A stretch of 64,000 bases of DNA from Nannocystis pusilla (GTDB lineage Bacteria > Myxococcota_A > Polyangia > Nannocystales > Nannocystaceae): assembly GCF_049060185.1 (NCBI RefSeq), contig NZ_JBMEQO010000002.1, one strand, 5' to 3'. Made by a program: the position numbers and the translations under genes. Each line of letters opens with the position of its first letter. Positions within the stretch are counted from its first letter, which is position 1. This document shows positions 9,002 through 51,899 of the stretch, one piece after another. Below the pieces are notes generated by a model that was not told where the DNA came from, ran no database searches, and saw nothing but the letters and a program-made list of their open reading frames with translations.

Positions 9002-13626
<4,625 letters not shown>

Positions 13627-15491: not shown

Positions 15492-15959
15492 ATGAAATCT
15501 CCGGTCGCGCAGGTCTTTGATCGAATCGCCCGCGCGGGCCACCATTCGTTCGACTCGATCGGAGCCGCGGCGCGCGAGCCACGGGCCGCGTGCATGGCTT
15601 CGCTGGCTGCGAAGGCCTCGGCGTAGGCGGCGCACGAACGCGACGTCGGGTTCGGCACGCCTTGAGACGCAGCGGGGCGAGCCACCCTCGAGCGGACGAG
15701 CGCGCCGCGCTGGACCTCGAACCGGCGGCTGCTACGGTGAATGGTTTTCGGGCCCGGCGACACGGCGGTGGGCGTGGAACGGACGGGCCCGCCAGGGAAT
15801 GACGCAAGCGGCCGCGCGTGGTCGGCAGGCGACCGCGCGTCGCTTGCAGGTGCAGTTACTCGCCAGCGAGCGGCTGCGCCTGGTCAGGCGATCCGAGCAG
15901 GCGGCCGCGCGTCGCCCTCGGCGGCTGCGCCTGGTGAGCAGGCAACATCGCCAAAAGAC

Positions 15960-16560
15960 CGCGCAATGCCAGCGGGCGGAACGGTAATGCGAGCAGGTGA
16001 ACGGCAATGGGAGCAGGCGGAGCGGCGAGGCGAGCAGGTGCCAGCAGTGCGCAGCAGACGAACGACAATGCGGACAGGCGCCGGCGATGCGAGCAGGCGG
16101 AACGGCGACGCGGGCAGGTGCCAGCGATGCGAGCAGGCGGAGCGGCAATGCGAGCAGGGTCCGGCGATGTGAGCAGGCGGAGCGGCGAGGCGAGCAGGGG
16201 CCGGCGATGTGAGCAGACGGAGCGGCGATGCGAGCAGGCGGAGCGGCAATGCGAGCAGGCGGAACGGCGAGGCGAGCAGGTACCAGCGAAGCGAGCAGGC
16301 GGAGCGGCGATGCGAGCAGGCGGAGCGGCAATGCAAGCAGGCGGCCCGGCGATGCGAGCAGGCGGCCCGGCAACGCGAGCAGGCGGCCCGGCAACGCGAG
16401 CAGGCGCCAGCAATGCGAGCAGGCGGTCGCGTCACGCATCGCGGAGGGGCAGTGCGCAACGCGAGCAGGCGCCAGCAATGCGAGCAGGCGGTCGCGTCAT
16501 GCATCGCGAGCGACTGCGCAATGCGATCAGGCGGCCCGGTAATGCGAGCAGGCGGCTGCG
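15960..16560. repeat. array of about 30 copies of 9-bp core GCGAGCAGG separated by 10- or 12-nt variable spacers
   Basis: Read directly, e.g. gcgagcagg cggagcggcaat gcgagcagg gtccggcgat gtgagcagg cggagcggcgag. Units of 19 and 21 bp are interleaved, so it cannot keep a reading frame. It lies upstream of the 14870-15491 gene and downstream of the GT1 gene. Confidence 0.8.
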
Positions 16561-16674
16561 CGCTGCGCGGCGGGACGGGCGGCTGTGTGTCGCGAGCGAG
16601 CGACCGCGCGGGTTCGGCTCGCCGCGCGGCGAACTGGAGCCCGGGCGGCCGGAAGAGCGCGCAGGCGACGCCGC

Positions 16675-17820
16675 TCAGGGGTTGGCGACGGGCGGGGCGA
16701 CGAGGCGCGTCAGGACGGCCTCCATGACGCCCCAGGTGTCGTCCCACGAGCTGCCGCGCAGGCAGGTGTCGACGCGCTGCAGCCAGCGGCGACGGTCGGC
16801 GCGGTGGAGCTCGCACTGAACGGCGATCACGAAGTCCTCGGCGCCCTCGGCGATCGAGACCATGCCCTGGATGGCGTACGGGTTGATGACGTCGCGCAGC
16901 GGGGTGGCCACCACCGGCTTGCCGGCGGCCAGGTACTCGAGGGTCTGGGACGGCTTGGCGCGGCGGAGGGCGGCCTCGTGGTTGAAGGGCAGGAGGGCGA
17001 TGTCCCAGCCGGCGAGGTAGGCGGGCAGCTCGGCGTAGGACTTGGGCCCGAGCTCGTGGATGTTGGGCCGGGCGGGCAAGCGGGGCCGGTCGGAGCCGCC
17101 CTCGTGGTCGATGAGGACGATGTGGAAGTCGGTCCGCAGGTCGGCGACGGCGACCAGGAGGTCGATGTCGACGTCGCGGTCGAGGGCGCCGTAGAAGCCG
17201 AGGCGGGGGTGGGGGATGTCGCGCTGATCGGCCGGGTCGGGGCCGCCGGCGCGGGCGCGGGCGAAGTGCGCCAGGTCGACGCCGCGCGGCAGGAGGTGGG
17301 TGGCCGGGCCGAACTCGGGGCCGAGCGGGTCGTGGCCGGCGTCGACGAACACGGCGTCCGCCCGGCGCAGGGCCTCGTCCCGCAGGGCCTCGTCGCCCTC
17401 GAGCGGCGACCGCGGCCCGCCCGGGCAATCGTAGTAGATGGTGGCGACCGGCTTGAGGCGGCAGGCGGCCATGGCCCGCGGCGAATCGTGGCACAGGACG
17501 AAGCCGCCGAGGCCGAGGTCGCGGACGACGCCGTCGAGCAGGCCGCGCAGGAGGGCGGTCGCCTCGTCGCCGGTCAGGCCGCGCGGTACGAAGGGAGTGG
17601 CGACCACGAGACCCTCGCGGTGGTCGAAGTCCATCCGCGGCGGGCCGGCGGTCGGCACCACGGCCTCGACGAAGACGACGCGCCGTTGCCGCGCGCCGCG
17701 AGACAGGAGATGCCGCAGACGCCGGGGTATGGCCTCCCAGGCGAGCTGCGAGACCCACAGGACCGGATGGCCGCCGGCGCTCGCCTGCGCCGGCGGAGGC
17801 CGATCCATGTCGTTCAACAT
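16675..17820 (-). CDS. GT1/GT4-type glycosyltransferase
   Basis: HPVLWVSQLAW..., LGFYGALDRDVDIDLLVAVAD, ELGPKSYAELPAYLAGWDIALLPF and AAGKPVVATP match the retaining GT-B family layout. The longer upstream ORF extension is low-complexity. Confidence 0.7.
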   Translation of the reverse strand: MLNDMDRPPPAQASAGGHPVLWVSQLAWEAIPRRLRHLLSRGARQRRVVFVEAVVPTAGPPRMDFDHREGLVVATPFVPRGLTGDEATALLRGLLDGVVRDLGLGGFVLCHDSPRAMAACRLKPVATIYYDCPGGPRSPLEGDEALRDEALRRADAVFVDAGHDPLGPEFGPATHLLPRGVDLAHFARARAGGPDPADQRDIPHPRLGFYGALDRDVDIDLLVAVADLRTDFHIVLIDHEGGSDRPRLPARPNIHELGPKSYAELPAYLAGWDIALLPFNHEAALRRAKPSQTLEYLAAGKPVVATPLRDVINPYAIQGMVSIAEGAEDFVIAVQCELHRADRRRWLQRVDTCLRGSSWDDTWGVMEAVLTRLVAPPVANP

Positions 17821-22143: not shown

Positions 22144-23231
22144 TCACAGGGCCGGGAGGAGCTTGTCCGTCAGCAGCTTGGCGGTGAGGCGATGCGGCTG
22201 CGGGCGATCGAAGTTGGTGGTGGTGATGACGACGACGACTTTCTGGGCCGGGAACACCTGCACTGTGTTGCCGCCGCTGCCGTTCATGGCCCACGACTCC
22301 CAGGTCCGGTCGCCGACCGGGAACCGCATCAGCCACCACAGGTAGCCGTACTCGACGCCGTCGTCGACGTGGGCGTGCGGCTGGACGGAGCGCGCGACCC
22401 ACTCGGCGGGCACGAGCTGCTGGCCGGCATGGCGGCCGCCGTCGAGGTAGAGCTGGCCGAGCGCCAGGAGGTCGCGGCTGCGCAGGCCGAGGCCGCCGCC
22501 GGCCTGCGGCAGACCCAGCGGCGAGTATTGCCATTTGGGATCGGCGATGCCGAGCGGCGTGAGCAACCTGCGCTGGGCGTATGCGTCGAGGCGCTCGCCG
22601 GTCGCGGCCTGCAGCACGGCGCCGAGCGTGGTCACGCCGGCGGTGCAGTAGCGGAAGTTGCGGCCGTGCGGCGAATCGGCCGGTTTCGGCATCCAGGCCG
22701 GGAAGCCCTGGATCGGCAGGTCGAGGTAGAACTTGACCCAATCCTCGACGAGGTACATGCGCTCCTCGTGGCCGCGCGAGAATTGATTCTCGTCGTGACA
22801 TTCGAGCAGCGACGACATGGTCAGCAGGTCCTCGACGGTGATATCCGCCTTGCGCGGATCGGGGTGCTCGGGGGCCCGTATTGCGCGAGGTAATCGAGGA
22901 TCGGGACCTGCGGGCCGGGCAGCTTGCCGTCGGCGATGGCCTGGCCGACCAGGATGCCGGCGAGGGTCTTGGTGGCGGACCGGGTGTTGCGCGGGGCCTC
23001 GCGTCCGCCGTCGTCGAAGTAATGCTCGTAGAGCAGCTCGCCGTCGCGCGCGACGAGGATGCTGGTGATCTGGCCGAACTCGCCGGCCTCGACGGCGCTC
23101 GTGAGGTCCTCGAGGCGGGCGGCGCGGGCGAGGCGAGCGGGGCCGGTGCGTCGGGTGCGCAGGAGGACGCGGCGTCTAGGAGCAGCAGGAGGGCGAGGGG
23201 GCAGGCGGCGAACAGCTTGAAGGTGGGCATC
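22144..23231 (-). CDS. serine hydrolase of the beta-lactamase (class C-related) family, secreted lipoprotein; 2 frame breaks
   Basis: Signal [18 protein letters not shown]; SxxK motif [16 protein letters not shown]; C-terminal part [13 protein letters not shown]...[19 protein letters not shown]. Three frames must be joined near 23130 and 22868, the latter in a G5 run. Confidence 0.6.
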
Positions 23232-23297
23232 GGCCGGGTCGGGAGAGGCGCGAGGCTAGCCGCGCGGCGGGGCCCGGTCTTGTACGCCGTGAACGTG

Positions 23298-24108
23298 TCA
23301 GGCCGGCCGCACGAGCCGGCGGAAGGCGGCGGGGGTGAGGCGGTAGGCGCGGTGAAAGGCGCGGCTGAAGTGGCTCTGGTCGACGTAGCCGCACTGGGCC
23401 GCGATGTCGGACAGGGGCGTGCGGTGGTCCCGCAGCAAGGCGCTGGCGCGCTCGAGGCGACAGTGACGCAGGTACTCGCCCGGGGAGCGGCCGTAGCGGG
23501 CCCGGAAGGCGCGCGAGAAGTGGACGGGGTGGACGTCGGCGGCGGCGGCGAGCTCGGACAGGCGCGGGGTGACTGCGCAGGTGTCGTGCAAGTGATCGCG
23601 GGCGCGCGCCAGCCAGGGCGGTCCGGACGAGCGCCGCTCGCGGGCGTCGAGCGCGGCCTCGGCGAGCAGCAGGTGGTACTCGGACTCGACGACGAGCGCG
23701 GAGGCGTCGTCCCAGCGGGGCATTCGTAGCACAGGCGATAGGCCGCGAGCAGAGCTGACGTCCCCAGCCGTACGGGGTGGTCGGGGAGCGGGCAGGTGGT
23801 GGTGGCGGCTCGCCAATTGTCGGTGGGGACGGACAGGGTGAAGAAGCGGCCGTCGAGGCCGCGGAAGCGATCGTGGTGGGTGGTGCCCGGCGGGTTGAGG
23901 ACGAGCGCAGGGTGGTCGCAGACGTCCGGCATGCCGCGCGCGCTGCTGAGATAGCGACCGGTGAGCAAGAGCAGGAAGTGGGCGTCCTCGTGGGTGTGCC
24001 GGTGAACCTCGTGCTCGGGCACGGTCGGCCGCAGATCGGCGAGCGCCAGGCCGTGAGCCGTCCGCCGCCGCTCGAAGAGGCCGAGGAAGTGTCCGGGACC
24101 GAACCGCA
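23298..24108 (-). CDS. AraC-family transcriptional regulator (cupin N-domain + HTH_AraC); 1 frame break near 23720
   Basis: N: EHEVHRHTHEDAHFLLLLTGRY...HPALVLNPPGTTHH. C: DVHPVHFSRAFRARYGRSPGEYLRHCRLERA...SHFSRAFHRAYRLTPAAFRR. Confidence 0.65.
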
Positions 24109-31235: not shown

Positions 31236-31820
31236 TCAGGCGAGGGGCGCAGGGTGCTCGTCGTGGTCGCTGCGGGCGGGGTCGCCGACGATCCGGCGGG
31301 CGGCGTCGGCGAGGTCGGCGGCGACGAGGGTGGGCGCGGGGCGGAGCGTCGGGGGCGGCGAGGCGGCGAGCAGGGCGGTGCGGCAACCGGCGCGGCGGCC
31401 GGCCTCGACGTCGCTGGCGATGTCGCCGACCATCCACGAGCGCGCGAGGTCGAGGCCGAGCTCGGCGGCGGCGCGGGTCAGCAGGCCGGGGGCGGGCTTG
31501 CGGCAGCCGCAGACGATCGCGTACTCGGCGACGACGCCGGCGGGCAGGTGCGGGCACCAGTAGAAGCCGTCGAGCTCGAGGCCGAGCAGGTCTTCGATGC
31601 GGGCCTGGACGCCGAGCAGGTCGTGGGCGCCGAACAGGCCGCGGGCGACGCCGGACTGGTTGGTGACGACGACGAGGGCGTAGCCGGCGGCCCGCAGCGA
31701 CCAGGCGCCGTCGCGGGCGCCGCGGGTGAGGCGGACGTGGGCGGGGTCGACGTTGTAGGGGACGTCGTCGATGAGGGTGCCGTCCTTGTCGAGGAAGGCG
31801 GCGGGGCGGAGGCGGGTCAT
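31236..31820 (-). CDS. gmhB: D,D-heptose 1,7-bisphosphate phosphatase (HAD superfamily)
   Basis: AFLDKDGTLIDD is HAD motif I; then VVVTNQSG and CGCRKPAPGLL...WMVGDIASDVEAGRRAGC. Intact. Confidence 0.8.
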   Translation of the reverse strand: MTRLRPAAFLDKDGTLIDDVPYNVDPAHVRLTRGARDGAWSLRAAGYALVVVTNQSGVARGLFGAHDLLGVQARIEDLLGLELDGFYWCPHLPAGVVAEYAIVCGCRKPAPGLLTRAAAELGLDLARSWMVGDIASDVEAGRRAGCRTALLAASPPPTLRPAPTLVAADLADAARRIVGDPARSDHDEHPAPLA

Positions 31821-32554
31821 GGCCAGCTCGTCTCGCGCATCGGCACGACCATCAGCTCGGGGATGACCGACTCGCCGGGCATGGCGAGGAGGAAGCGGAT
31901 GGTCTCGGCGACGTTGCGCGGGTCCTGGAGGTTGGTGATCGGGGTGTCGGGGAAGCGGTCGAGGATGAAGGGGTGCGCATGCCGCCGGCCAGCAGGGCGG
32001 TGACCTTGATGCCGAACGGGCGGCCCTCGACGTGCAGGGCGTGCGACAGGCCCAAAAGGCCCCACTTGCTGGCGTGGTAGGCGCTGGCGTTCTGCCAGGC
32101 CCGCTTGGCGGCGGTCGAGACGATGTTGACGATGTAGCCTCCCCTGGGCGCGCAGGCGCGGGAAGGCGGCGCGGCTGAGGACGAACGGGCCGCGCAGGTT
32201 GACGGCGAGGACGCGGTCGATGTCGTCGACGCTGAGCTCGTCGACCGCGAGCGTCTTGTCGGTGCCGGCGTTGTTGACGAGGACGTCGAGCCGGCCGTGG
32301 CGGGCGACGATGGCGTCGATCAAGGACTGCCCGGCCTCGGCGTCGCGCACGTCGAGCTCGGCGGCCTCGATGCGGCCGCCGAGGTCGCGCACCTCGGCGA
32401 CGAGGCGGGCGAGCGGACCGGACTGGATGTCGGCGGCGATCACGTGCGCGCCGGCGGCCGCGAGGGTGCGACCGATCTCGGCGCCGAGGCCCGAGCCGCC
32501 GCCGGTGACGAGCACGATCTTGTCCGCGAGGGGTGATTCGATCACGAGGGTCAT
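31817..32554 (-). CDS. SDR-family oxidoreductase inside the heptose cluster; 2 frame breaks
   Basis: VLVTGGGSGLGAEIG Rossmann fold; DVLVNNAG; catalytic region HALHVEGRPFGIKVTALLAGGM in the adjacent frame; C-terminal HPFILDRFPDTP. Confidence 0.6.
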   Translation of the reverse strand: MTLVIESPLADKIVLVTGGGSGLGAEIGRTLAAAGAHVIAADIQSGPLARLVAEVRDLGGRIEAAELDVRDAEAGQSLIDAIVARHGRLDVLVNNAGTDKTLAVDELSVDDIDRVLAVNLRGPFVLSRAAFPRLRAQGRLHRQHRLDRRQAGLAERQRLPRQQVGPFGPVARPARRGPPVRHQGHRPAGRRHAHPFILDRFPDTPITNLQDPRNVAETIRFLLAMPGESVIPELMVVPMRETSWP

Positions 32555-32649
32555 CGGTCCTCCGAGTGCGATGATTCGATGCAGGGCCGGAGCCGGTGAG
32601 GCGGGGTGATGCGAACGCGAGGGTCATCGGTCCTCCGAGTGCGATGATT

Positions 32650-33230
32650 TCAGGGCAGCGGGGCCACCCGCGCTTCGACCAGTTCGCAGATCAGGTGCAG
32701 GGCCAATGTGTGGACCTCCTGAATGCGCTGAGTGTCGGGCGAGGGCACGATGAGGGCGCAGTCGGCGAGGTCGCCGGCCTCGCCGCCGGTGCCGCCGAGC
32801 AAGGCGAAGGTGCGCAGGCCGCAGTCGCGCGCGGTCTTGAGGGCGGCGACGACGTTGGCAGAGCGGCCGCTGGTCGAGATGCCGAACACCACGTCGCCGG
32901 GGCGGCCGTAGGCGCGGACCTGGCGGGCGAACACGTCGGCGTAGCCGACGTCGTTGGCCCACGCGGTCAGGACCGCGGTGTCGGCGTTGAGGGCGATGAC
33001 CGGCAAGGCGGCGCGGTCGGGGGCGAGGAAGCGGCCGACGAGCTCGGCGGCGAAGTGCTGGGCGTCGGTGGCGCTGCCACCGTTGCCGCACACGAGGACC
33101 TTGCCGCCGCGGGCGAAGGCGCCGCTGACGAGGTCGGCGGCGCGGACGATGTCGTCGCGCAGACAGGTCTTGGCGCGCGAGAGCACCGCGAGCAGGTCGT
33201 CGAAGCCGCGGTCGACCGCGGCGAAGGCGG
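32650..33230 (-). CDS. gmhA: phosphoheptose isomerase (SIS domain)
   Basis: GGKVLVCGNGGSATDAQHFAAELVGRF, GDVVFGISTSGRSANVV and QEVHTLALHLICELVE. The start is unclear: upstream in this frame there is no ATG, and it may read through from the GT4 gene. Confidence 0.7.
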
Positions 33231-33239
33231 CGGTGGGGG

Positions 33240-34519
33240 CCTGGGCGGGCGCCGGCCGGCGGCCGCGGCGAAGGCGTCGGCCAGGCGGGCGGCGACCTTC
33301 TCCCAGGTGAACAGGGCGTGGACGCGCTGCAGGCCGAGCTGGGCCAGGCGCCGGGCCAGGCGCGGCTGCGACAGCACCAGGGCGAGCTTGTCGGCCAGGG
33401 CGTCGGGGTCGCTCGGCGGGACGAGGTAGCCGGTCTCGCCGTGGGCGACGGTGTGGGCGATGCCGCCGACGTTGGCGCCGATGACCGGGACGCCGCAGGC
33501 CATGGCCTCGAGCGGGGTGATGCCGAACGGCTCGTACCAGGGGGTGCTGACGAACACGTCGGCGGCGACGTAGTAGTCGCGCAGCTCGCCGCGGCCGCGG
33601 CTGCCGACGAAGGTGACGCGGCCCTCGACGCCCTCGTCGCGGGCGACTGCCATCAATCGGCCGATCTCGGGGGTGAGGGCAGGATCGGGCCGGCGCGACT
33701 CGCCGCCGACGACGACGAGCCGCGCCCGCAGCTCGCCCGGGAGCCGCGCGAGCGCGCGGATGACGTTGTCGACGCCCTTGCGCGGGACCATGCGCCCGAG
33801 CTGCAAGACGATGCGGTCGCCGTCGGCGAGGCCGAGCGCGGCGCGGGCCTCGGCGCGACCGCCGGGCCAGAACTCCTCGGGGTCGAAGCCGCACGGGACC
33901 ATGACCAGCTTCTCAGGGTCGGCCGCGTAGAGGGTCATGAGGTCGACCTCGTCCTGCGGGCACTCGGCGACGATCAGGTCGGCCTCGCCGACGACCCGCG
34001 CCTCGATGGCGAAGCGCTCGTCGGGGAAGCCGTCGGCCTGGCCCTGGTGCTGCCGCCGGACCTTGCCGAGCGCGTGGAAGGTGACCGCGAACGGGACGCC
34101 GAGCTCGCGCTTGAGGTCGGCGGCGACGAGGCCGCTCATGAAGAAGTTGGCGTGGGCGAGGTCGTAGCGCTCGCGCCGGGCGTGGGCCGCGACCTCGCGG
34201 GTGAAGGCGGGCATGAGCGGCAATAGCGACTCCTTGGCCAGCGGCGCGGCGGGCCGGCGTCGACCGGGAGCACGCGCACGCCGTCGGCCAGCTCGACGAC
34301 CGGCGGCAAGGTCGGGCTGTCGCGGCGGGTGAACACGTCGACGCGGTGGCCGAGGCGGCCGAGGTGGCGCGCGACCTGGGCGACGTAGACGTTCTGGCCG
34401 CCGCTGTCGCGCCCGCCGAGCGGGGCGAGCGGCGAGGCGTGCTCGCTGATCATGGCGATCCGCAGCGGGCTCTGCGAGTGGCCGACGCCGGCGCCGGTCT
34501 CGAACGGCAGCGGCTTCAC
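33240..34519 (-). CDS. GT4 glycosyltransferase (MshA/SPS-like); 1 frame break near 34250
   Basis: N: RIAMISEHASPLAPLGG...GGQNVYVAQVARHLGRLGHRVDVFTRR. C: YDLAHANFFMSGLVAADL...FVSTPWYEPFGITPLEAMACGVPVIGANVGGIAHTV. GTG start preceded by GGAGG. Confidence 0.65.
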
Positions 34520-34559
34520 GCGGTCCTCCGGGCCGGCTCGGGGCCTGTCCCGCGGGACA

Positions 34560-35575
34560 GGTGGTGACGGGCGGGAGGAGCTGGTCTTCGGGACATCCGG
34601 TGAGCGGCGGTATGACCTGTCCCTCGGGACATCCGGTGACCTCGCCCAGGACCCGCGACCAGTCGGCGGCGAAGCGGCCGATGCCGAACCGCTGGCGGGC
34701 GATCCGGCGGGCGCCGGCGGCCAGCTCGGCGGCCTCGGCGGGGTCGGCGAGCAGGCGCCGCATGTGCGCGATCAGGCGGTCGAGGTCGGTCTCGACGTAG
34801 CCGTTGACGCCGCTCTGCACGGCGGTGCTCATCTCGGTGGTGGCGAGGCCGAGGATCGGCAGGCCGATCATCATCGCCTCGCACACCGCCAGGCCGAGGC
34901 TGGTGTAGCGGATCGGGTTGAAGAAGAAGCGGTAGCGGCCGAGGCGGGCGTGGAGCTCGCGCAGCGGCAGGTCGCCGAGGCCGCCGAGCGCGGCCGAGTC
35001 CATGCCGGCCAGGTCGAGCGGGACGTGGGCGCGCACGCGGTCGAACACGTCGCGGCCGAGCCGACGCCCGCGCCGCGCGAGGTCGTTGACGACGACGATG
35101 CCGCGCGCGAGCTCGCCGCTGTAGGTGGTGTCGTCGGGGACGACGACGCCGTGCTCGACGACCCGCACGGGGTGCGCCCGGCGTCCCACATGAGGGCGTT
35201 GAACGGGGTGACGTGGACGAGCAGGACGTCGGGGTCGTCGACCGGGTGGCGGGTGTCGGTCGGCGACTCGCGCGGCGGATCGTGCTCGAGGTAGACGCGC
35301 GGCAGGCGGCGCTGGGCGGCGCCGAGGATCTCGAACTGGTCGCACTCGTAGTTGCGGCGCGACTGGAACAGGACGACGTCGAACGGCTGCTGCGCGAGGA
35401 GCTCGACCGGGACCTCGTGGACGTTGGCGCCCCAGGCGAAGCTGCCGCTGCGCCCGCCGTAGCCCTCGGGTCGACCTGGCTTTACGGGCAGGTAGAATTC
35501 GTGCGGCGCCTGGGTGAGGTAGTAGAGGTAGCTGCCGTGAACGTGCCAGGTCAGGACGCGGAGTCGTCGCACGAG
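34560..35575 (-). CDS. GT4/GT1 glycosyltransferase; 1 frame break near 35190; stop not identified
   Basis: N: RVLTWHVHGSYLYYLT...FDVVLFQSRRNY...LLVHVTPFNALMW. C: GIVVVNDLARRG...FFFNPIRYTSLGLAVCEAMMIGLPILGLATTEMS...GYVETDLDRLIAH. Probable GTG start. Confidence 0.5.
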
Positions 35576-36049
35576 GGCCTCGCTTTCGCGCTCACAGGGG
35601 CGAGCGCCGCGCTCAGGTCGAGCGCGTCGAGCAGGAGAGGTGACGCCCCGGACCGATGACGCGGGCCGAGGGGGCGGGACGGCCGGGGCGAGCACGCCGC
35701 CGCCGAACTCGCCGGCGAAGCCGGCGCGCACCGGGATGCCGGCGAGATAGGCGAGGTAGGCGACCTCGAAGGCGGTCTCGCCGACGGCCGTAAACACCAG
35801 GGCGGCGTCGAGGCGCGCCGCGGCCAGCCGCTCGACCAGGGTCGAGAGGTGCGGGGCGTCGCACCGCGTCAGGGCGCCGGCAGGCACGACCTGGTCGACG
35901 AAGGCGGCGACGCGACCGGCCGCGCGCGCGTCGGCCAACAGGATCACCATCGCCTGCGGCACCGCGACGCGCAGGCGCACCAGCGCCGGCCCGAGCTCGT
36001 CGCAGCCGGCCGCGGGCAGGACCACGAGCAGCCGGCGAGCGCGGCGGAG

Positions 36050-37146
36050 GGCAAGCCGCGGGTCAAGCACGATCGACCCCGCGAGGAACAGGGCGGCGTC
36101 GGCCTCGGCGAGGATCGCCGCGGCCGTCGGCGGGACCACGCGGGCGTCGACGACGCGGTGACGCACGCGATCGAGGGGCGCCCAGCGGCCCGGCGCGGTG
36201 CTGCGGAAGACGACGACGCTCGGGGTCTGCAGCGCGCTGGCGAGGTGCGAGACGCCGGTGTCGCCGGCGACGACGAGGCGAGCGCGCTCGACCAGGGCGC
36301 CGAGCGAGCCGAGGCCGGTGCGGCCGACCAGATCGACGAGGTCGCGCTCGGCGTGGCGGCGGACCGCGGCGGCGAGGTCGGCCTCGTGGGCGGCGCCGGT
36401 GAGGATCACCGCGAGGCCGCGCGTCACGAGGCCGTCGGCGACTTGCGCGAGGACGCCGGGGTCGACGCGGCGGTGCGGCTCGGCGGCGCCGGGGTGGACG
36501 ACCGCGAACGCGGCGTCGGGCGCGAGGCCGGCGGCCCGCAGCAATGCGTCGCGCTGGTGCGCGTCGCCCGGCGCGAGCGGGAACTCGAGCCGCTCGCCGC
36601 GCGCCTCGATGCCGAGAGCGGCGAGCAAGGCGAGGAGGATCCGCGGCTCCGCGAAGTCATTCGGGTAGAGCACGAAGGTCGCGGGATCGGGGCACGGCTG
36701 CGGCGGGGCGTAGAAGCCGGCGCTGGCGCGCGCGCCAGCAGCTGGACGAAGATGTTGCTGACGAGGCCGTCGCCGTGCATCTGCAGGGCGAGGTCGAAGC
36801 GGCCCTGGACGGCGCGCAGGAAGTCCGGGAGGGCGCGCACGTCGGCGGGGGTCTCGGGCAGGCCGGGGAAGCCGGGGAACTCGAGCAGGTCGTCGACGAG
36901 GTGCGGGTAGCGGGCGACGAGCTCGCGGGCCCGCGCGAGGCCCAGGAGGGTGATCCTGGCCCGCGGCAGCGCGGCTCTCAGGGCCCGCAGCGCCGGAGTG
37001 GCGCACAGGAAGTCGCCGAGGCCCGGCAGGGCGCGCATGACCACGACCTCGCGCGGCGGGCGGAGCTGTCCGCCGATCCGCGCGCGCAGGTCCGGCTCCC
37101 TCGCCGACGAGGCGAGCGCGAACTCCGGTGATACGACTCCGCTCAT
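36050..37146 (-). CDS. GT9 family glycosyltransferase (heptosyltransferase-like); 1 frame break near 36420
   Basis: N: [29 protein letters not shown]: [25 protein letters not shown]...[22 protein letters not shown]. Confidence 0.6.
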
Positions 37147-37191
37147 TGGCGACCTCTGCCCGGCGAACCGCGAATCATCACAGTCGGACGA

Positions 37192-37674
37192 TCACGCGGC
37201 GGCCTCGGGTTCGACCCGTGATTCGAGCGCCTCGAAGGTCTCGGCGAGGGTGCGCGCCTGATCGTCGTCGAGGATGGCCTCGACGGCGGCGAAGATGGTG
37301 CTCTCCTCGAACGCGACGTGATCGGTGACGCTGCGGGTGAGGGCCTCGACCTTCGTCGCCCATTTCGCGTCGTCGGCCCGCATCGCCTCGAGCTCGGCGA
37401 GCTGCTGCCGGACCTGAGCGTGGTCCCGCTCGGCGTCCTTGACCAGCGCCTTGCCCTGCGCGTCCTGCTGGGCGAGGATGTCGTAGAACACGGCCTCCTC
37501 GGCCCGCGCGTGGCGCTCGAGCGCGTCGCGGACCTGGCCGAACAGCTGCTGCCCGCGCGCGACGTCCCGCTCGCGCGACAGCGCGGCGAGCAGCTCCGCG
37601 ACGGCGCGGTGCTGCTCGCGGATCACCTGGTAGATGGTGGGGTCTTGAGCGGTTTCGATCATCGGGCCGTTCAT
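37192..37674 (-). CDS. hemerythrin HHE domain protein (third copy in window)
   Basis: IYQVIREQHRAVAELL, HARAEEAVFYDIL and DHVAFEESTIFAAVE are the H/E metal-binding pattern. Confidence 0.7.
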   Translation of the reverse strand: MNGPMIETAQDPTIYQVIREQHRAVAELLAALSRERDVARGQQLFGQVRDALERHARAEEAVFYDILAQQDAQGKALVKDAERDHAQVRQQLAELEAMRADDAKWATKVEALTRSVTDHVAFEESTIFAAVEAILDDDQARTLAETFEALESRVEPEAAA

Positions 37675-41340: not shown

Positions 41341-42677
41341 TGAGCGAACAGCCCGACACTGCCCCCGGTGAGCGCGCGCCCGAACCGCCGCTGTTCGTGG
41401 CGCTGACGCGGCTGCTAGCGACGCCGGTCACGTCGGTCCGCGAGACCCTCGTCGCGGCCTGCGAGGTCGTGGCCTCGGTGGTCGAGACCGACAAGGTGGA
41501 CGCGTTCCTTCACGACGCCGCCCACGATTCGCTGGTGGCGATCGGGACCTCGGATTCGCCGATGTCCCGCCGCCAGCGCGCGCTCGGCCTCGATCGCTTG
41601 CCGCTGAGCAACGGGGGCCGCGCCGTCGAGGTGTTCCAGACGGGCAAGCGCTACCTGTGCGACGACGTGCAGGCCGACGCCGGCGAGCTGCAGGGGATCC
41701 GGGAGGGGCTCAAGGCGCAGTCGACGATCGCCGTGCCGATCGAGGTGCAAGGCAAGCGCCGCGGGGTGCTGATGGTGACGGCCGCGAGCAGGAACCAGTA
41801 CCGCTGGAGCGACCTCGAGTTCCTGACCGCCGTCGCCCACTGGATCGGGGTGGTGACGCACCGCGCCGAGCTGGTCGAGGAGGCGACCCGGGTGGCCGCC
41901 GAACGCGCGCGCCAGCGGACGGCCGAAGAGCTGGTTTCGGTCGTGGCGCACGACCTGCGTAACCTGATCGCGCCGCTGGCCGCGCGGCTGAACGTGCTGA
42001 CGGTGCGAGCGGATGCGGAGGCGCGCGCGGCGGACCTCGAAGAGCTGAGCAAGGCGAGCCGCGGGGTCGAGCGGCTGGGACGGGTGCTGTCCAACCTCCT
42101 CAGCGTGGAGCGGATCGAGCGCGGCCTGTTCGACCTCCGGCTGCAGGTGGTCGACCTCGTCGAGCTCACCCGCAGCACGGCCGCGCTGTTCGCCGCCGGC
42201 GGGCAAGCGCTCGAGATCGAGGCGCCGCCGCAGGTGCTGGCGTGGGCCGACCCCGACGCGCTGCGACAGGCGCTGGAGAACTTGGTGCACAACGCGATCA
42301 CCCACTCCCCGGAAGGGGCGGCGCTGTCGCTGACGATCCGCCGCGACCGGTTCGACGGCGCCAACTGGAGCCTCGTTCGCGTCCGCGACTTCGGGCCCGG
42401 CATCCCCGCGGAGCTCCTGCCGACGCTGTTCGACCGCTTCGCCCTCGGACCGAAGTCGTTCGGCCTCGGCCTCGGCCTCTACCTGGCGCGCAGCATCGTC
42501 CAGGCGCACGGCGGCTCGCTGGTGGTCGAAGATGCGGACGGGCCCGGCGCCTGCTTTCGCCTGGCGCTGCCGATGTACGAGCCGCCCGCCGGCGAGGCCG
42601 GCGAGGTCCGCGAAGCGAAGTGCGGCGGGAGCGAGAGCCGGCGCGAGGGCGACGGCGGGCCGGCGTCACATACCTGA
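41341..42677 (+). CDS. GAF-domain sensor histidine kinase (HisKA + HATPase_c)
   Basis: GAF: RYLCDDVQAD...STIAVPIEVQGKRRGVLMV. H-box: VVAHDLRNLIAPL. ATPase: LVHNAITHSPEGAALSL...DFGPGIP...GLGLGLYLARSIVQAHGG. Confidence 0.8.
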
Positions 42678-44590: not shown

Positions 44591-46062
44591 TCAGGGCGAG
44601 CGGACCAGGCGCGCGGCGGTGTCGAGCAGGCGCCCGAGCTTGACCGGCTTGGGGATCAGGATCGTGCCGGCGGGGGCGCGGGCGGGATCGGAGGTCGACA
44701 CGATCACGGGGATCCGCGCCAGCTCGGGGACGGCCTGCATGGCCTGATAGACCTGACCGCCCTCGAGCAGCGGCATCACCAGGTCGAGGATGACGAGGTC
44801 GGGCTTGACCCGCGCGTGCAGCAATTGGTCGAGCGCGTCGCGCCCGTTGGCCGCGGTCATGGTCGCGTAGCCCTCGCCGGCGAAGGCCTCCCGCAGGCTC
44901 TCGCGGGTCGCGTCGTCGTCGTCGGCGATGAGCACGGTGTGGCCGCGCGACGGGCGATCGGCGCGCGTGGGCTCGGGCGTGGCGCGCGGCAGGCGGAGGG
45001 TGAACACGGTGTCGGTCTCGTCGCTCGAGATCACCGAGACCGTGCCGCCGTGGGCCTGGGCGATCTGCTGGGCGATGTAGAGGCCGAGGCCGAGGCCGCG
45101 GGCGTTGGTGCGCGAGGGCGAGTGGTCGCGGCCGCGGAACGGGTCGAACAGCACCGGCACGAGCTCGGGCGGGATGACGCCGCGGTTGCGGATCTCGACC
45201 GCGATCTGGTGGCCGTCGTCGAACACCCGGATGCCGATCGGGCCGTCCGCGTGGCCGTGCTGGATCGCGTTGCCGATCAGGTTCGACAGCGCCTGGACCA
45301 CGCGGTCGGGATCGCCGGCGGTGACGGTGTCGCCGAGGGTCTCGACCCGGACCTCGCGCTGCGAATGCGTGGTGCGCAGCTCGTCGACGGCGCGCTGCAC
45401 CAGCTCGACGACGTCGACCCGCTGGCGCGCGCGCGAAGCCGAGGCCGCCGGCCAGCCGCGCGCGCGTCAGGTCGAGCAGCTGCTCGATCATCTCGTTCAT
45501 GCGGTGGCTCGAGACGAACATGCGCCGCAAGATGCCGCGCTGGTCGTCGTCGATCACCAGCTGCTCGAGGATCTCGGTGCCGGTCTGGATCGCCGACAGC
45601 GGGGTGCGCAGGTCGTGGCCGAGGATCCCGACGAACATCTCGTTGAGGCGCAGGGCGTGGGTGCAGTCGCGCCGCTGCCGCGACAGCTCGAAGAACACGT
45701 CGGCCTTGCTCCGCAGCACCCGCGGGTCGATCGGCTTGTGCAGGAAGTCGACCGCGCCGGACTCGTAGCCCTGGAACACCCGCTCGCTGTCGCGCGCGCC
45801 GGCGGTGATGAAGATGATCGGCACGTTCTTGGTGCGCTCGGTGCCTCGCATCAATTCGGCCAGCTCGAAGCCGTCCATCCCCGGCATCTGCACGTCGAGG
45901 AAGGCCAGGGCGACGTCGTGGACGAGCAGCAGCTCGAGCGCCTCGAAGCCGCTGCGCGCGGTGAGGATGTTGAGGCCGTCGCGCCGCAGGAGCGCCTCGA
46001 GGGCGATGAGGTTCTGCTCGGTGTCGTCGACGAGGAGGAAGTTGATCGGTTCGAGGTTCATG
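44591..46062 (-). CDS. hybrid histidine kinase REC-HisKA-HATPase_c-REC; 1 frame break near 45420
   Basis: REC1: [18 protein letters not shown]...[14 protein letters not shown]-box: [15 protein letters not shown]. ATPase: [12 protein letters not shown]...[21 protein letters not shown]2: [14 protein letters not shown]...[10 protein letters not shown]. Confidence 0.75.
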
Positions 46063-46074
46063 TCGCCTCCCCGG

Positions 46075-46652
46075 AGCGCGTGGGCGCGGCGAGCCGCGCG
46101 AGCAAGGTGCCGATGGCGGCCGCCGGCACGGCGTGGTCGATGGCGACCTGCCGCAGCGCGGCCGCCGGCATGGTCGGGACCGCGGCGGTGGCCGGCGATT
46201 CGACGATCGTGAGGCCGCCGGCCTCGGCGATGCGCGAAAGGCCGCGGGCGCCGTCCTCGTTGGCGCCGCTGAGCAGGACGCCGGCGAGGTGCGGCCGAAG
46301 GCGTCGGCGGCCGACTCGAACAGCACGTCGATCGAGGGCCGCGAGAACAGCACGGGGCGGTCGACCGAGAGCGAGAAGCTGCGCCCGCGCTCGACGAGCA
46401 GGTGGTAGTTCGGCGGGGCGACGTAGACGGTGCCGGGCACGATGGGCTCCTTGTCGTCGGGCTCCCGCGTCGGCAGCGAGGCCTTCGTGCGCAGGACCTC
46501 GACGAGGTGGCTGGGCTGGGTCGGCGGCAGGTGCAGGACCACGGCCAGCGGCAGCGGATAGCCCGCCGGCAGCGCCGGCAGCAAGGCGGCGAGGCGTCGA
46601 GCGCCCCCGACGAGCCGCCGATCACGATCATGTGAATGTCGCGCGTCGCCAT
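46075..46652 (-). CDS. CheB-type methylesterase catalytic domain; 2 or more frame breaks
   Basis: IVIGGSSGALDA, then in the adjacent frame LPAGYPLPLAVVLHLPPTQPSHLVEVL...PNYHLLVERG...DVLFESAADAFG. Confidence 0.55.
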
Positions 46653-46655
46653 GGT

Positions 46656-47470
46656 CTACCGCCGTTGATAGATCCGGTCCTCGGGGACGAGCTCGGTGAA
46701 CGCCTCGGCGTGCGACGAGAACCGCAGGGTCTCCTTGGCGCCCAGGCCGAGGAAGCCCTTGCGCCGCACCGAGTCGCGCAAGACGCCGATCGCCCGGTTC
46801 TGCAGCGGGCGGTCGAAGTAGATCAGGACGTTGCGACACGACACCAGCTCGACCTCGGCGAAGGCGACGTCGGTGGCGAGGCTGTGATCGGAGAACAGGA
46901 TCGACTGCTTGAGCCGACGGTCGAGGATCGCCGAGGCGTACTGCGCGGTGTAGAAGTCGGACAGCGAGCCGCGTCCGCCGGCCTGGCGGTAGCTGTCGGA
47001 GAAGCGGGCGAAGCGCTCGAGGTCGTAGACGCCGGCCTCGGCGGCGCGCAGGCTCTCGGGGTGGATGTCGGTGGCGTAGATCAGGGTGCGGTCGAGCAGG
47101 CCCTCCTCGGCGAACACGATGGCGAGCGAGTAGGCCTCCTCGCCGGTGGCGCAGCCGGCGACCCACACCTTGAGCGAGGGATAAGTGCGCAGGTACGGCA
47201 CGACGCGCTCGCGGATCGATCGATAATACGAGGGTCGCGGAACAGGTCGCTGACCTGGACGGTGAGGAAGCGGAGCAGCTCGCTGAAGCCGCGCGGCTCG
47301 GCGAGCACGCGCTCGCGCAGCTCGCCGAGCGAGGGGCAGCGGAGGTGGGTCAGGGCGGCGCCGATCCGCCGGCGCAGCGAGGCCTCGGCGTAGCCGCGGA
47401 AGTCGTAGTGATAGCGGTGGTAGACCGCGTCGAGCAGCGCGCTCAACTCGGGGTCGGGCGCAGTCGTCAT
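46656..47470 (-). CDS. CheR-type methyltransferase; 1 frame break near 47220
   Basis: N: LLDAVYHRYHYDFRGYAEASLRRRI...FLTVQVSDLFRDP. C: LKVWVAGCATGEEAYSLAIVFAE...LVSCRNVLIYFD. Confidence 0.7.
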
Positions 47471-50400
47471 TTGGGCATCCACACCCGCGCCAGCGACAGC
47501 AGCTTGTCGACGTCGAGCGGCTTGGCGATGTAGTCGTTGGCGCCGGCGGCGAGGCAGCTGGCGCGATCGTCGGCCATGGCCTTGGCGGTGAGGGCGATGA
47601 TCGGGATCTTGGCGGTCGCCGGGTCGGCGCGGATCGCCCGCGTGGCGGTGAGGCCGTCCATCTCCGGCATCATCAGGTCCATCAAGATCAAGTCGACGCC
47701 CGGCTTGAGTTTCAGGTGCTGCAGCGCCTCCTTGCCGTTGCGCGCGATCTCCACCTTGGCCCCGCGCGGCTCGAGCACGCTGGTCAAGGCGAACACGTTG
47801 CGGACGTCGTCCTCGACGACGAGCACGCGCCGACCCTCGAACACGGCGTCGCGGTGGCGAGCGTCCCGCAGCATGCGCTGTCGCTCTGGCGGGAGGCTGG
47901 TCTCGACCTGGTGGAGGAACAGGGTGACCTCGTCGAGCAGCCGCTCCGGCGAGCGCGCGCCCTTGATGATGATGGACTGCGAGAAGCGCCCGAGCTCCTG
48001 CTCCTCGGCCCGGCTGATCGCCCGGCCGGTGTAGACGATGACGGGCGGGAACCCGTACTGGTCGCCCTGGGCCATCTCCCGCAAGAGTTCAGAACCTGAC
48101 CTGTCGGGCAGGCTGAGGTCGAGGACCATGCAGTCGAAGGTGGTGGTGCGCAACGCGCGGAGAGCGTCGGCGGCGGTGCCGACCGGCACTGTCTCGACGT
48201 CGTCGGCCGCGAGCAGCTTGCAGGTGCTCTCGCGGTGGACGACGTCGTCCTCGACGACGAGGACGCGCCGCAGCGACTGGGTGGCCTTCGACTCGAGCCG
48301 CCGCAGGGCCGCGACCAACTGATCGCGGACGACGGGCTTGATGGCGTAGGCGACCGCGCCCATCTCGAGCGCGGTGCGGGTGTGGTCGCTGGCGGAGATG
48401 ACGTGGACCGGGATGTGCCGGGTCGCGGGGTCGTGCTTGAGCGCGTCGAGGACGCTGAGGCCGGAGCGGTCGGGCAGGAGACGTCGAGGACGATGGCGCT
48501 CGGCCGCTGCTGACGCGCGAGCGCCAGGCCCTCCTCGGCGGTGTCGGCCAGGAGGGGTGGAAGTCGAGCTCGCGCGCGAGGCCGGCGAGGATGCCGGCGA
48601 ACGCAGGGTCGTCCTCGACGACGAGGATCGAGCGCGCGGCGGCCGGCGGCTGGGGCGGGGGCGGCGGCGCGGGGAGGCGACGCAAGGGGGGATGGGCGCC
48701 GGCGGTGGCAAGGGCGCGAGGGTCGGCGCCGGGTCCGAGCCGCGGGCGACGAGCTGCGCGGGGATGGTGAGGGTGAAGGTGCTTCCGCGGCCGACGACGC
48801 TGGCGACGGTGAGGTCGCCGCCGAGCAGGCGCGCGAGGTCGCGTGAGATCGAGAGACCGAGGCCGGTGCCGCCGTACTTGCGGTTGGTCGTGCCGTCGGC
48901 CTGGCGGAACGCTTCGAAGATCAGCTCCTGCTGATCGGGCGGGATGCCGATGCCGGTGTCGGTGACGTCGAAGGCGACCGCGCCGGCCCCGGCGGCGCGC
49001 ACCGTGAGCTTGACGCCGCCCTGCTCGGTGAACTTGAGCGCGTTCGACAGCAGGTTGCGCAGGATCTGCGACAGCCGCGTCGGATCGGTCTGGAGCGCGC
49101 CCGGGACGTCGCGCTGGACGTCGAGGTCGAGGGCGAGCCGGCGATCGCGGGCGACCGGGCGGAAGGTCGACATCATCTGGTCGGTGACGCGCGCCAGCGA
49201 GATGGTCTCGGGCCGGACGTCGAGCATGCCGGCCTCGATCTTCGACAGGTCGAGGATGTCGTTGATGAGGGTGAGGAGGTCGTTGCCGGCGGAGTAGATG
49301 GTCTCGGCGAACTTGACCTGCTCGGCGTCGAGGTTGCCCGGGCGGTTGTCGGCCAGCAGCCGGGCGAGGATCAGCGAGCTGTTGAGCGGGGTGCGCAGCT
49401 CGTGGGACATGTTGGCGAGGAACTCGGACTTGAAGGTGGAGGTCCGCTTGAGCTGGATCTGCGCCTGCGTGAGGGTGTCGCGCTCGGCCTGCAGCGCCTG
49501 CGTCTGCTCCTCGAGGTGGGCGTTGATCTGCTCGAGCTCGGCCTGCTGATTGCCGAGGCGCGCCCGCGACTCCTCGAGCGCGCGGGTCTGCTGCTCGAGC
49601 TCCTCGTTCTGCACCCGCAGCTCTTCTTGTTGGGTCTGCAACTCCTCGGCCTGACGCTGGGTCTCCTCCAGCAGGGCGGCGAGCCGCTCCTTCTGCTCGG
49701 AGCTGCGGACCGCGAGCGCGACGGTCTCGCCGATCCGCTCGAGCAAGGCGCGCACGCGCGGCTCGGCCGGGCGCAGGAAGCCGAGCTCGAGCACTGCGAT
49801 GGTGACGCCGTCGACCCGCGCGGGCAGCACGAGCACGTGGGCGGGGAGGCGCTCGCTGGTGCCGGTGCGCAGGGGCAGCTCGTCGGCGTCGCGCAGCTCG
49901 ACGACCTGGCCGCCGGCGGCGGCGCGGCCGATGACGCCCTCGCCGGCGGCGAACGTCTCCGGCCCGGCGACCCGCGAGTCGAGCGCGAGGCCGACGCGCC
50001 GCACCCAGTCGCCGCCGTCGCGCACGAAGAAGGCGCCGACGTCGGCGCCGGCGTGGGCGGCGAGCGCGGCCAGGCAGTCGTGGCCGACCTGCACGGTGCT
50101 CTTCTCGCCCTGCACGACCTCGGCGACGCGCGTGTGACCCTCGCGGATCCAGGCCTCGGCCTCGAGCGCGGCGCGGGCCTGCTGCTCGGCGTCGAGGGCG
50201 GTGCCGAAGGTGCTGGCGATCGAGGCGAGCTGGCGCCGCGAGAGGAAGGCGAGCAGGAGGGCGACGCCGGCGAGCAGCGCGACGAAGGCGGTCCGCGCGA
50301 TCGCGGTCGAGCGCTCCGAGGCGACGGCGCGCGCGCAGCAGGTCCTTCTCGATGTCGGTGGCCACGGCCATGGCGTCGCGGATGTCGTCCATCCGGGCCT

Positions 50401-50844
50401 TGCGCGCGAGCATGGCGGCGGGGCTGCGCGCCTGGTCGAGGTCGTGACCGGTCAGCGCGGCCTCGCAGGTGGCGTACCACTCGCGGTAGTGCTGGTGGGC
50501 CTGATCGAACTGAGCCTGCTGCGAGGGGCTGTCGGCGACGAGCTCGTGCAGGCGCTCGAACTTGCCGTCCGGGTGCGCCCGCTCGAACGGCCCCAGGTAC
50601 TGGCGATCGCCGGTGAGCAGGAAGCCGCGCAGCGCGGTCTCCTGATCGACGATCTCGAGCATCGTCGCGTTGGCCTGCGACAGGACCTCGTTGCTGTGGT
50701 TGACCCAGGCGGCGTCGTCCGCCATCAGGAGGATCTGCCGGCCGAGGACGACGCCGAGCAGCAACAGGAGGGCGATCGGCGTGGCGATGGCGACGGTGAG
50801 CCGCTTGGTGAGCGACGTGCGCTGCTCGTCCCTGGTGAGGTTCA
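47467..50844 (-). CDS. hybrid sensor kinase CHASE3 - coiled coil/GAF - HisKA - HATPase_c - REC x3, about 1125 aa; 3 or more frame breaks
   Basis: TM + CHASE3: [19 protein letters not shown]...[28 protein letters not shown] heptad coiled coil: [21 protein letters not shown]-box: [11 protein letters not shown]. ATPase: [11 protein letters not shown]...[10 protein letters not shown]. Three D-containing receivers, the last DLMMPEMDG. Confidence 0.75.
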
Positions 50845-51345
50845 CCCGATGCTCCTTGTGTCCGCGGTGTCCGAGGCGCCCCCGCCGGCCGATGGCCGCT
50901 GCGCGGCGAACCCCGACGAGCGTGTGGCCGGGCCCGGCCGCCCCAGCCCGTGAGGTCCCATGATTCGCACGAATGGTGATTCGTGGCGGGGCGCGCAGGG
51001 GGCCGAGCAGGTCGCGGCGGGTGATCTTTCGCATGACGCGTATCAGGGGTCGCTGCGACGATCGATGTCTCCCCTGCGGGCCAGGCGATACCCCCGTCTC
51101 CACGCCCGCGTCCCCGGCAGAACGGCGCCGAGGCCGAGGGGAGAAGGTCGATACGGCCGAGCCCGCTGCGGCGTGATTCGTACGAGCGGGCTGCGTCATG
51201 CGCGCAAGCGGTGGGAATGGCGAACGAGCCGCCGAAATCGACGGCGCGACGAGGGCCGTCAGCGAGCACCTGCGCCGTTTCGTGGCGCTAGTCGGGCGAG
51301 CGCGCGGTGCAACCACGATCAAACTGGTGGGCGGAGAAACCGACC

Positions 51346-51552: not shown

Positions 51553-51899
51553 CGAATGTCGGCGCTCCGCGCCGCTCTGCGATGCGATTCGGCGCGCCTG
51601 CAGGTCCGTGACCTGCAGGCGCGCCGAACCCTTTGCGCCGCGAACGATCCTCCGGCGCTGCGGCCGCCCCGCCCGCCGCGTGCGTGACCCGCAGCGGGTG
51701 ACGCGAATGCGCGGGCGGTTCAGGGCGCCGCCCATTCATGCTACCGCCCGGAGGTCCTGGCGGTGGTCGAGGCATTTCGGGGCGCGCGTCACCGGTCGAC
51801 GGCGCTCGATCGACAGCGAGCCGATGGGCCGCACGAGCGAGCGCGCGTCGGTACGAGGCGCATGTTCCATGGGGCATGTTGCGAAGGACAGGTCCGCGC

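Follow-up and report, generated by a model that had tools for sequence, protein, structure and literature searches.

The locus described here lies in a window of 64,000 nucleotides from Nannocystis pusilla, the window being the whole stretch of DNA that was analysed. It comprises four minus-strand genes for a CHASE3 hybrid sensor kinase, a CheR-type methyltransferase, a CheB methylesterase and a second kinase framed by receiver (REC) domains. The closest described systems are found in Bacillus cereus and in Pseudomonas. RsbK of B. cereus is built as CHASE3-HAMP-GAF-S-helix-HK-REC (HK, histidine kinase; S-helix, signalling helix), and its S-helix is methylated by the adjacent CheR-type protein RsbM (PMC4574943; PMC12848376). 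This methylation acts together with an inhibitory receiver domain, which is not a relay step, to hold sigma B off; RsbM is without a paired methylesterase, and 127 RsbK-like kinases were counted in 10 phyla (PMC4574943). The phospho-accepting His of RsbK is H505.

The second system is the cluster named cfcABCDE of Pseudomonas putida. Here, CfcA (PP_3761) combines CHASE3 and GAF in a hybrid kinase and needs His496 to activate the diguanylate cyclase CfcR, while cfcB/cfcC are a CheR/CheB pair with no chemotaxis role and CfcD is a REC-containing kinase (PMC4951495). BmsA of P. alkylphenolica lies within such a cluster, which P. brassicacearum has as genes 3082-3079 (PMC8175716). Going by the title of Tagua et al. 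(2022), the cue of P. putida CfcA is salt. A role for CheR and CheB in the Pseudomonas cluster was not found in the published literature.

The Nannocystis cassette is a member of the known and very widespread RsbK/CfcA-type kinases with a dedicated CheR, with or without CheB, and not a new kind of system. We further hold, at a probability of roughly 65%, that it is a self-contained two-component module whose kinase is modulated by the adjacent methylation enzymes. Methylation of the Nannocystis kinase, its exact sites, the action of CheB and the direction of the effect are what we infer from the evidence below.

Glu-Glu pairs in the signalling helix

The kinase has the layout TM1 - CHASE3 - TM2 - GAF - long coiled coil (S-helix) - HisKA - HATPase - REC1 - REC2 - REC3, where TM stands for transmembrane segment. 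Four in-phase Glu-Glu-Leu (EEL) heptads of the coil, with E395, E402, E409 and E416 as second Glu of each pair, are putative methyl-accepting sites (Table 1). A first-pass annotation of the window had quoted a 26-residue string of this coil, which is present exactly (kinase residues 401-426, window 49570-49647), and had set against its own reading a plain linker with no E/Q pairs; what is found are heptad-spaced Glu-Glu pairs. These sit 88, 81, 74 and 67 residues before the phospho-accepting His, in one heptad phase. Over 110 homologues, the first Glu of the motif stands 74, 81 or 88 residues before the His; the distance therefore varies only by whole heptads. In many homologues it amounts to 88 residues, compared with 81 here, the Nannocystis coil being one heptad shorter. 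Written back from the His, which takes position f, the register places Leu at d in each of eleven heptads; position a is polar, and b/c hold the Glu-Glu pairs. As such it describes what is predicted to be an unbroken, marginally stable parallel coil.

Conservation of the EEL stretch equals that of the H-box and the G-boxes: among 117 full-length homologues (49-97% identity) its columns reach 0.85-0.90, against 0.54-0.66 in the remaining coil. Invariant in 24 sequences of 49-84% identity are E401, E402, L403, Q404, Q406, Q407, E408, E409, L410, V412, N414, E415, E416, L417 and Q420.

The pairs also follow the presence of CheR. At 70 informative loci, all of which share the H-box, EE[LIM] triplets were counted over the 120 residues that precede it. 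Of the 41 kinases with CheR next to them, 39 have three or more triplets (minimum two); in kinases with such a CheR, 148 of 168 triplets fall in one phase. Kinases without CheR, in contrast, have two or fewer in 25 of 29 cases, twelve of them having none, while 4 of 29 have three or more; typically they read AELQAQQKELQQTNEQL, with a single Glu and not pairs.

The comparison with RsbK was made by distance to the His in RsbK-length relatives. The methyl-accepting residues of RsbK are reportedly E439 (preferred) and E446 (minor; Chen et al. 2012), 66 and 59 residues ahead of H505. In 30-33 of the 47 RsbK-length relatives of a representative library, consecutive EEL triplets place their second Glu at exactly these distances. 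The Nannocystis kinase has E416 (the second Glu of NEEL) at -66 and Ala at -59, and its array extends N-terminally to E409, E402 and E395.

Distribution of the cassette

A scan with one genome per species yielded 80 loci, from Pseudomonas, Stutzerimonas, Stenotrophomonas, Burkholderiales, Verrucomicrobiota, Nostoc/Microcoleus, Paenibacillus/Bacillus, Gemmatimonadota, Acidobacteriota, Planctomycetota and Bacteroidota (Flavobacterium, Chryseobacterium, Pedobacter, Sediminibacterium). CheR is encoded beside the kinase in 43 loci; in 33 of these 43 CheB comes directly next, and in 31 of the 43 a receiver-first gene immediately follows CheB or CheR. Across phyla the cassette CheRs are 40-62% identical. 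At locus L002, with a kinase 54% identical to that of Nannocystis, the same four genes stand amid wholly different flanks. A check of ±8 kb around 82 loci found the signalling domain of a methyl-accepting chemotaxis protein (MCP) or CheW at none of the 82. The first-pass annotation had suggested that methyl-modulated kinases are a recurring design of this genome. A second methylation-associated locus is indeed present in the window (see below), but the design is not particular to the genome, since the cassette recurs across more than ten phyla.

The order HK-CheR-CheB-REC-HK is shared with the cfc-type loci L007, L010, L014, L016 and L064 (Pseudomonas/Stutzerimonas). The kinase of L007, from the P. 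putida group, is 48% identical to the Nannocystis kinase over residues 47-1127, has its phospho-accepting His at residue 496 counted from the first Met, as published for CfcA, and contains the same EEL heptads (NEELQVQQEELKTANEELEEQ). Based on the position of His496, the 48% identity and the shared motif, we regard the orthology between the Nannocystis kinase and CfcA as direct.

Locus L029 (Bacillus/Paenibacillus, 7995-17197) encodes, in order, a REC-PP2C protein (RsbY-like), the kinase, CheR without CheB, a REC-HK-REC protein, an anti-sigma kinase and a sigma factor. Its kinase of 1237 amino acids (aa) has three receivers and is 41% identical to the Nannocystis kinase, and its RsbM-like CheR is likewise 41% identical to the Nannocystis CheR. 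At L029 the cassette is coupled to a partner switch of the sigma-B type, and through its gene order and three-receiver kinase the Nannocystis type is therefore linked to the RsbK type.

Domain architecture of the four proteins

Pfam searches of the frame-stitched proteins agree with the domains named in the first-pass annotation. For the kinase, E-values are 1.5e-25 for CHASE3, 6.7e-07 for GAF_2, 7.6e-19 for HisKA, 2e-31 for HATPase_c and 1e-59 for the three Response_reg stretches. The GAF_2 match, at 30 bits, is barely over the Pfam cut-off of 28.6 bits. An AlphaFold2 (AF2) monomer model has a mean predicted local distance difference test (pLDDT) of 75, with confident globular domains. No HAMP family was matched in the kinase at E<=0.01 in Pfam; in the AF2 model TM2 is linked to GAF by a helical segment of about 50 residues. 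NCBIfam holds no model for the kinase family, all matches being under cut-off, with TorS and HrmK as the best.

All three receivers carry the DD / D / T(S) / K set, and D789, D911, D1058, K838, K963 and K1110 are invariant or nearly so in 24 homologues. Three tandem receivers had been expected to form an internal phosphorelay or a phosphate sink. Their number is confirmed by Pfam, but relay or sink is only one possibility, because the receiver of RsbK was shown to be inhibitory and to work with the methylated helix. The 30-nucleotide (nt) starts of REC3 and REC2 (47803-47832 and 48241-48270) are 97% identical in DNA, far above the remainder of both domains. The C-terminus of the kinase family (47470-47502, minus strand) is a near-invariant ...LSL(L/A)RVWMPK with an invariant Trp (W1124), which is unusual for a last receiver helix. 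We considered ...RVWMPK as a tether for CheR, similar to the pentapeptide of MCPs, and dropped this idea, as the motif belongs to the last receiver helix and no flexible linker is present.

CheR consists of CheR_N and the CheR SAM-binding domain (Pfam; SAM, S-adenosylmethionine). Against solved chemotaxis CheRs it scores 85, 59 and 49 bits, B. subtilis CheR (5FTW) being the closest with 85 bits. CheB matches CheB_methylest at 1.4e-51 (Pfam), without a receiver domain in the protein, and its catalytic Ser, His and Asp align with those of 1CHD and 3SFT, so that the triad is intact.

The intact copy in Nannocystis sp. RBIL2

Among database proteins, the kinase is closest to the intact 1127-aa protein P0001 of Nannocystis sp. 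RBIL2 (97% identity); proteins of N. punicea, N. bainbridge and N. pusilla come next. At the RBIL2 locus all four genes are intact, and window and RBIL2 DNA are 96.7% identical across 8.9 kb, with 25 gap openings. Compared with RBIL2, deletions are present in each of the four window genes (Table 1), two of those in the kinase gene falling inside REC1.

Gene order and surroundings

The coding map was drawn from a plot of G+C at third codon positions by frame (GC3 frame plot) and a six-state Viterbi segmentation, and proteins were stitched across frames by eye. The window has a G+C content of 72%, and lists of open reading frames (ORFs) are therefore crowded with spurious frames. Both methods give coding on the minus strand throughout 44591-50860, with nine frame switches. 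Four co-directional genes had been announced by the first-pass annotation and are found, all on the minus strand; its limits, 44591-50844, are nearly exact, the GTG start of the kinase gene lying one base further, at 50845. In the RBIL2 copy start and stop codons of the four genes overlap as well, and the four minus-strand genes are translationally coupled. The REC-HK-REC protein is probably a downstream partner of the CfcD kind.

Table 1. Positions of the cassette genes, of kinase features, of deletions relative to Nannocystis sp. RBIL2 and of the second methylation-associated locus in the window
Feature	Position	Strand	Basis and remarks
Hybrid sensor kinase	50845->47467	-	GTG start at 50845; about 1125-1126 aa frame-corrected
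CheR-type protein-glutamate methyltransferase	47470->46656	-	271 aa; start overlaps kinase stop codon
CheB methylesterase, catalytic domain alone	46652->46058	-	198-199 aa; no receiver domain
REC-HisKA-HATPase-REC kinase	46061->44591	-	490 aa; start overlaps cheB stop codon
TM1 and TM2 of the kinase	50741-50800; 50242-50292	-	Flanking CHASE3; hydrophobic stretches read from sequence
CHASE3 extracytoplasmic sensor domain	50327..50710	-	Pfam; residues 45-175
GAF domain	49759..50082	-	Pfam GAF_2; residues 256-379; AF2 model confident here
Four in-phase EEL heptads of the signalling helix	49588..49674	-	Residues 392-420; putative methyl-accepting sites
H-box with phospho-accepting His	49381..49431	-	Pfam HisKA; His is residue 482 in P0001; conservation 0.98
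Three tandem receivers (47470..48628)	REC1 48292-48628; REC2 47911-48270; REC3 47470-47835	-	Pfam Response_reg
Deletions in the kinase gene	50335 (-2); 48712/48703/48688 (net -1); 48553; 48476		Relative to RBIL2
Deletions in the other genes	CheR 47231; CheB 46593 and 46294; REC-HK-REC 45424		Relative to RBIL2
CheB-CheR-coil-PAS_10-PAS-PAS-HisKA_3-HATPase fusion kinase	9058-13575	-	Translations and Pfam
Stand-alone CheB with C-terminal extension	13704-14735	-	Translations and Pfam

The absence of MCP and CheW nearby, as claimed before, is in line with our searches. A tblastn search of the window, seeded with the MCP signalling domain and CheW of E. coli, gave no match at E<=0.01, and the Pfam annotation of the syntenic RBIL2 locus contains no family of MCP, CheA or CheW. 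For CheA, which had no tblastn query of its own, absence refers to the RBIL2 annotation only. Window-wide absence of MCP and CheW rests on tblastn and the RBIL2 annotation, the Pfam annotation of the window being partial. PP2C, an anti-sigma kinase or an adjacent sigma factor were found neither in the window flanks nor at the RBIL2 locus, and no GGDEF gene was seen near the latter. The neighbours at the RBIL2 locus are a CsbD-like gene, a pyrophosphatase, dehydrogenases, a LysR regulator and a GAF kinase.

Between 44300 and 51700 a scan for promoters and terminators gave nothing beyond shuffle expectation, a repeat scan of the locus returned paralogous receiver-domain motifs only, and Rfam had no match inside the locus. 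At 51588-51628, upstream of the kinase gene, there is an inverted repeat whose 19-nt arms pair perfectly around a loop of 3 nt (TTCGGCGCGCCTGCAGGTC / GACCTGCAGGCGCGCCGAA). A soluble GAF-histidine kinase is encoded 2 kb from the cassette (41391-42653, plus strand). Elsewhere in the window, hemerythrin-domain ORFs occur twice (2096-3099 and 37225-37644, both minus strand), and an nhaA-I RNA (Rfam RF03057) was detected at 61174-61224 (plus strand) with 51.6 bits against a gathering score of 37.

The other methylation-associated locus is about 30 kb away and consists of a fusion kinase and a stand-alone CheB (Table 1). Fusions of CheB, CheR, PAS domains and a kinase carry the KEGG label 'CheB/CheR fusion protein'. 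The likeness that had been claimed between the cassette coil and the NEEL coil of a fusion kinase at 9-13.6 kb is real: the fusion has eight xNEELxx-type heptads (ANEELQS ANEEILS SNEELQS TNEELDT AKEELQS TNEELNT VNEELHG RNEELSR). As in the cassette, CheB and CheR catalytic domains are tied to a kinase and to xNEEL heptads, with no MCP. In contrast to the cassette, enzymes and coil of the fusion form one polypeptide, its coil runs into PAS_10 whereas the cassette coil runs into DHp, and the fusion is of the HisKA_3 type; its CheR domain is 27% identical to the cassette CheR. The C-terminal extension of the stand-alone CheB (roughly 165 aa) contains CPECGG...FRCHVGHGF, zinc-ribbon-like in appearance, and has no Pfam match. 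Two NarL/LuxR-type response-regulator genes (REC; REC+GerE) adjoin the fusion kinase on the opposite strand (7462-8794, plus strand) and are likely its cognate partners.

Discussion

A mechanism can be envisioned in which the CHASE3 domain of the membrane kinase senses an extracytoplasmic cue. The signal would pass via TM2 and GAF to the long parallel coiled coil, whose heptad register would continue unbroken into the DHp helix with the phospho-accepting His. Four Glu-Glu pairs, exposed at b/c of consecutive heptads, would be offered to the adjacent CheR, which with SAM would methylate the second (c-position) Glu of the pairs, while the REC-less CheB would strip the methyl groups off. Neutralisation of charge may shift the packing of a marginally stable coil that has Leu at d and polar residues at a, and such a shift may bias the kinase/phosphatase state, possibly via docking of the kinase's own receiver(s) as in RsbK. 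The outcome would be a resettable gain or memory, like chemoreceptor adaptation but without CheA, CheW and MCP. Phosphoryl groups would pass both to the receivers of the kinase itself and to the REC-HK-REC protein transcribed with it. Since CheB has no receiver, feedback would need conformation-dependent substrate choice, which is speculation. The methyl-modulated kinase proposed in the first-pass annotation has the RsbM/RsbK precedent (PMC4574943), the association of the Glu-Glu heptads with CheR and their fixed phase to the His in its favour, its methylation step being predicted for this protein.

One might go further, though we give this somewhat less than even odds: CheR and the REC-less CheB could perform reversible multi-site adaptation on the kinase, with E395, E402, E409 and E416 as a graded methylation register that resets its gain, and the fusion kinase 30 kb away could modify itself likewise. 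RsbK/RsbM shows one-way methylation only, and a demonstration of reversible, CheB-dependent kinase methylation was not found in the literature. If true, Glu-Glu pairs at b/c in phase with the phospho-accepting His would be a general signature of methyl-adapting kinases in more than ten phyla.

Several observations weigh against modulation of the kinase by methylation. Methylation sites of MCPs follow the consensus Glx-Glx-x-x-Ala-Ser/Thr, and when the coil was compared with it, as the first-pass annotation had proposed, the kinase showed no match to EExx[AS][ST] or to a longer small-residue consensus; 112 of 117 homologues have none either, while the fusion coil of the first locus has four. 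Consequently, what the kinase has in common with MCP sites is no more than Glu-Glu pairs at heptad spacing on a coiled coil. AF2 gives a pLDDT <50 across residues 409-474, where the helix is interrupted, so that a continuous coil is not confirmed by the model, which is neutral on this point because of its low confidence there. The number of EE[LIM] triplets differs with CheR adjacency at p=1.5e-9 (Mann-Whitney) without correction for phylogeny. Four kinases without CheR, at the two Nostoc loci L019 and L026 and at L072 and L077, hold 3-6 triplets, and around these no CheR or CheB is found within ±8 kb, even at E<=1. Thus Glu-Glu heptads alone are not diagnostic; either the enzymes of these four are encoded elsewhere, or their heptads have another role. 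In P. putida, the CfcA-dependent phenotype survives mutation of the other cfc genes (PMC4951495), and a biochemical demonstration was not found in the literature for any cassette that includes CheB.

Finally, the genes are not open in the window: relative to RBIL2 there are ten frame-breaking deletions in 6.25 kb of coding sequence. With every gene frameshifted, the cassette of this strain might be taken for a decaying pseudogene cluster. We consider this very unlikely. Frame changes hit almost every gene of the 64-kb window and not the cassette alone (e.g. 9058-14735, 22147-24091, 31254-37644 and 44591-50845), and the deletions, of 1-2 nt, are mostly losses of single bases in short G or C runs. 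The ratio of nonsynonymous to synonymous differences (pN/pS) of the four genes against RBIL2 is 0.14-0.35 in the reference frame, which points to purifying selection. Taken together, the window-wide frame changes, the low pN/pS and the intact RBIL2 copy make the indels look like assembly errors and not like locus-specific decay. Users of the window sequence should be cautious, as it carries many such errors.

Two further alternatives concern the substrate of the enzymes. CheR and CheB might be ordinary chemoreceptor adaptation enzymes for MCPs encoded elsewhere in the genome. Myxobacteria usually have several che clusters, our searches of Nannocystis were confined to the window and the RBIL2 locus, both catalytic domains are complete and align with chemotaxis structures, and the misfit of the kinase coil to the MCP consensus would be explained as well. 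However, the order HK-CheR-CheB-REC-HK is kept in more than ten phyla with varied flanks and never an MCP or CheW nearby. Across phyla, cassette CheRs share 40-62% identity; they reach only 49-85 bits with solved chemotaxis CheRs, and the present one shares only 27% identity with the other CheR of the window. Furthermore, CheB lacks the receiver domain that couples CheB to CheA, the CheR/CheB pair of the P. putida cassette has no chemotaxis role, and the content of Glu-Glu heptads follows CheR adjacency. We thus regard MCPs as quite improbable substrates. It is also unlikely, in our view, that the EEL coil is purely structural and that CheR and CheB have some other substrate, for example the REC-HK-REC partner, a receiver or a protein not linked to the cassette. 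The Q/E-rich xEL coils of relatives without CheR, including the four that keep three or more Glu-Glu triplets, would fit such a role, and the AF2 model is uninformative on the coil. Yet the partner protein has no comparable Glu-Glu array before its H-box (score 0), it is the Glu-Glu pairs themselves and not merely the coil that are invariant and enriched beside CheR, RsbM methylates RsbK on the S-helix, and in the fusion kinase of the first locus a coil of this type comes right behind the CheR domain. We therefore keep modulation of the kinase itself by CheR and CheB as the preferred reading.

The cassette suggests that the adaptation enzymes of chemotaxis work with ordinary two-component kinases as well, in an arrangement that is widespread, with Myxococcota, Pseudomonadota, Bacillota, Cyanobacteria, Bacteroidota, Acidobacteriota, Gemmatimonadota, Verrucomicrobiota and others among the phyla concerned. 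For genome annotation, cheR/cheB pairs beside such kinases should not count as evidence of a chemotaxis pathway. The invariant Glu-Glu heptads, their fixed phase to the His and their co-variation with CheR provide concrete candidate sites for the cfc/bms clusters and for CheB-containing variants.

Comparison with known systems

With chemosensory adaptation the cassette shares homologous CheR and CheB catalytic domains and Glu-Glu pairs seven residues apart on a coiled coil. It differs in that no MCP or CheW was found near it, CheB is without a receiver domain, a two-stranded kinase coil takes the place of the four-helix bundle as proposed substrate, and of the two coils only that of the fusion kinase matches EExx[AS][ST].

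The host of the present cassette is a myxobacterium, in contrast to the Pseudomonas cfc clusters with which it shares its gene order and EEL heptads. The gene for CfcR, the orphan REC-GGDEF-EAL regulator through which the Pseudomonas system controls c-di-GMP and biofilm, is not in the window, and a counterpart of the fifth gene, cfcE, was not identified.

RsbK has a HAMP domain and one receiver, whereas the Nannocystis kinase has no HAMP match and three receivers; CheB is present in Nannocystis, whereas no methylesterase is paired with RsbM. The output of RsbK runs through RsbY (REC-PP2C) to RsbV/RsbW/sigma-B, while REC-PP2C and a partner switch were not found at the Nannocystis locus. Nevertheless, both kinases have the arrangement CHASE3 ... 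GAF - S-helix - HK - REC with a CheR-type gene directly downstream, and RsbK-type kinases carry EEL heptads in the same phase to the phospho-accepting His. The 66 residues between E416 and the His in Nannocystis equal the distance of residue 439 from H505 in RsbK.

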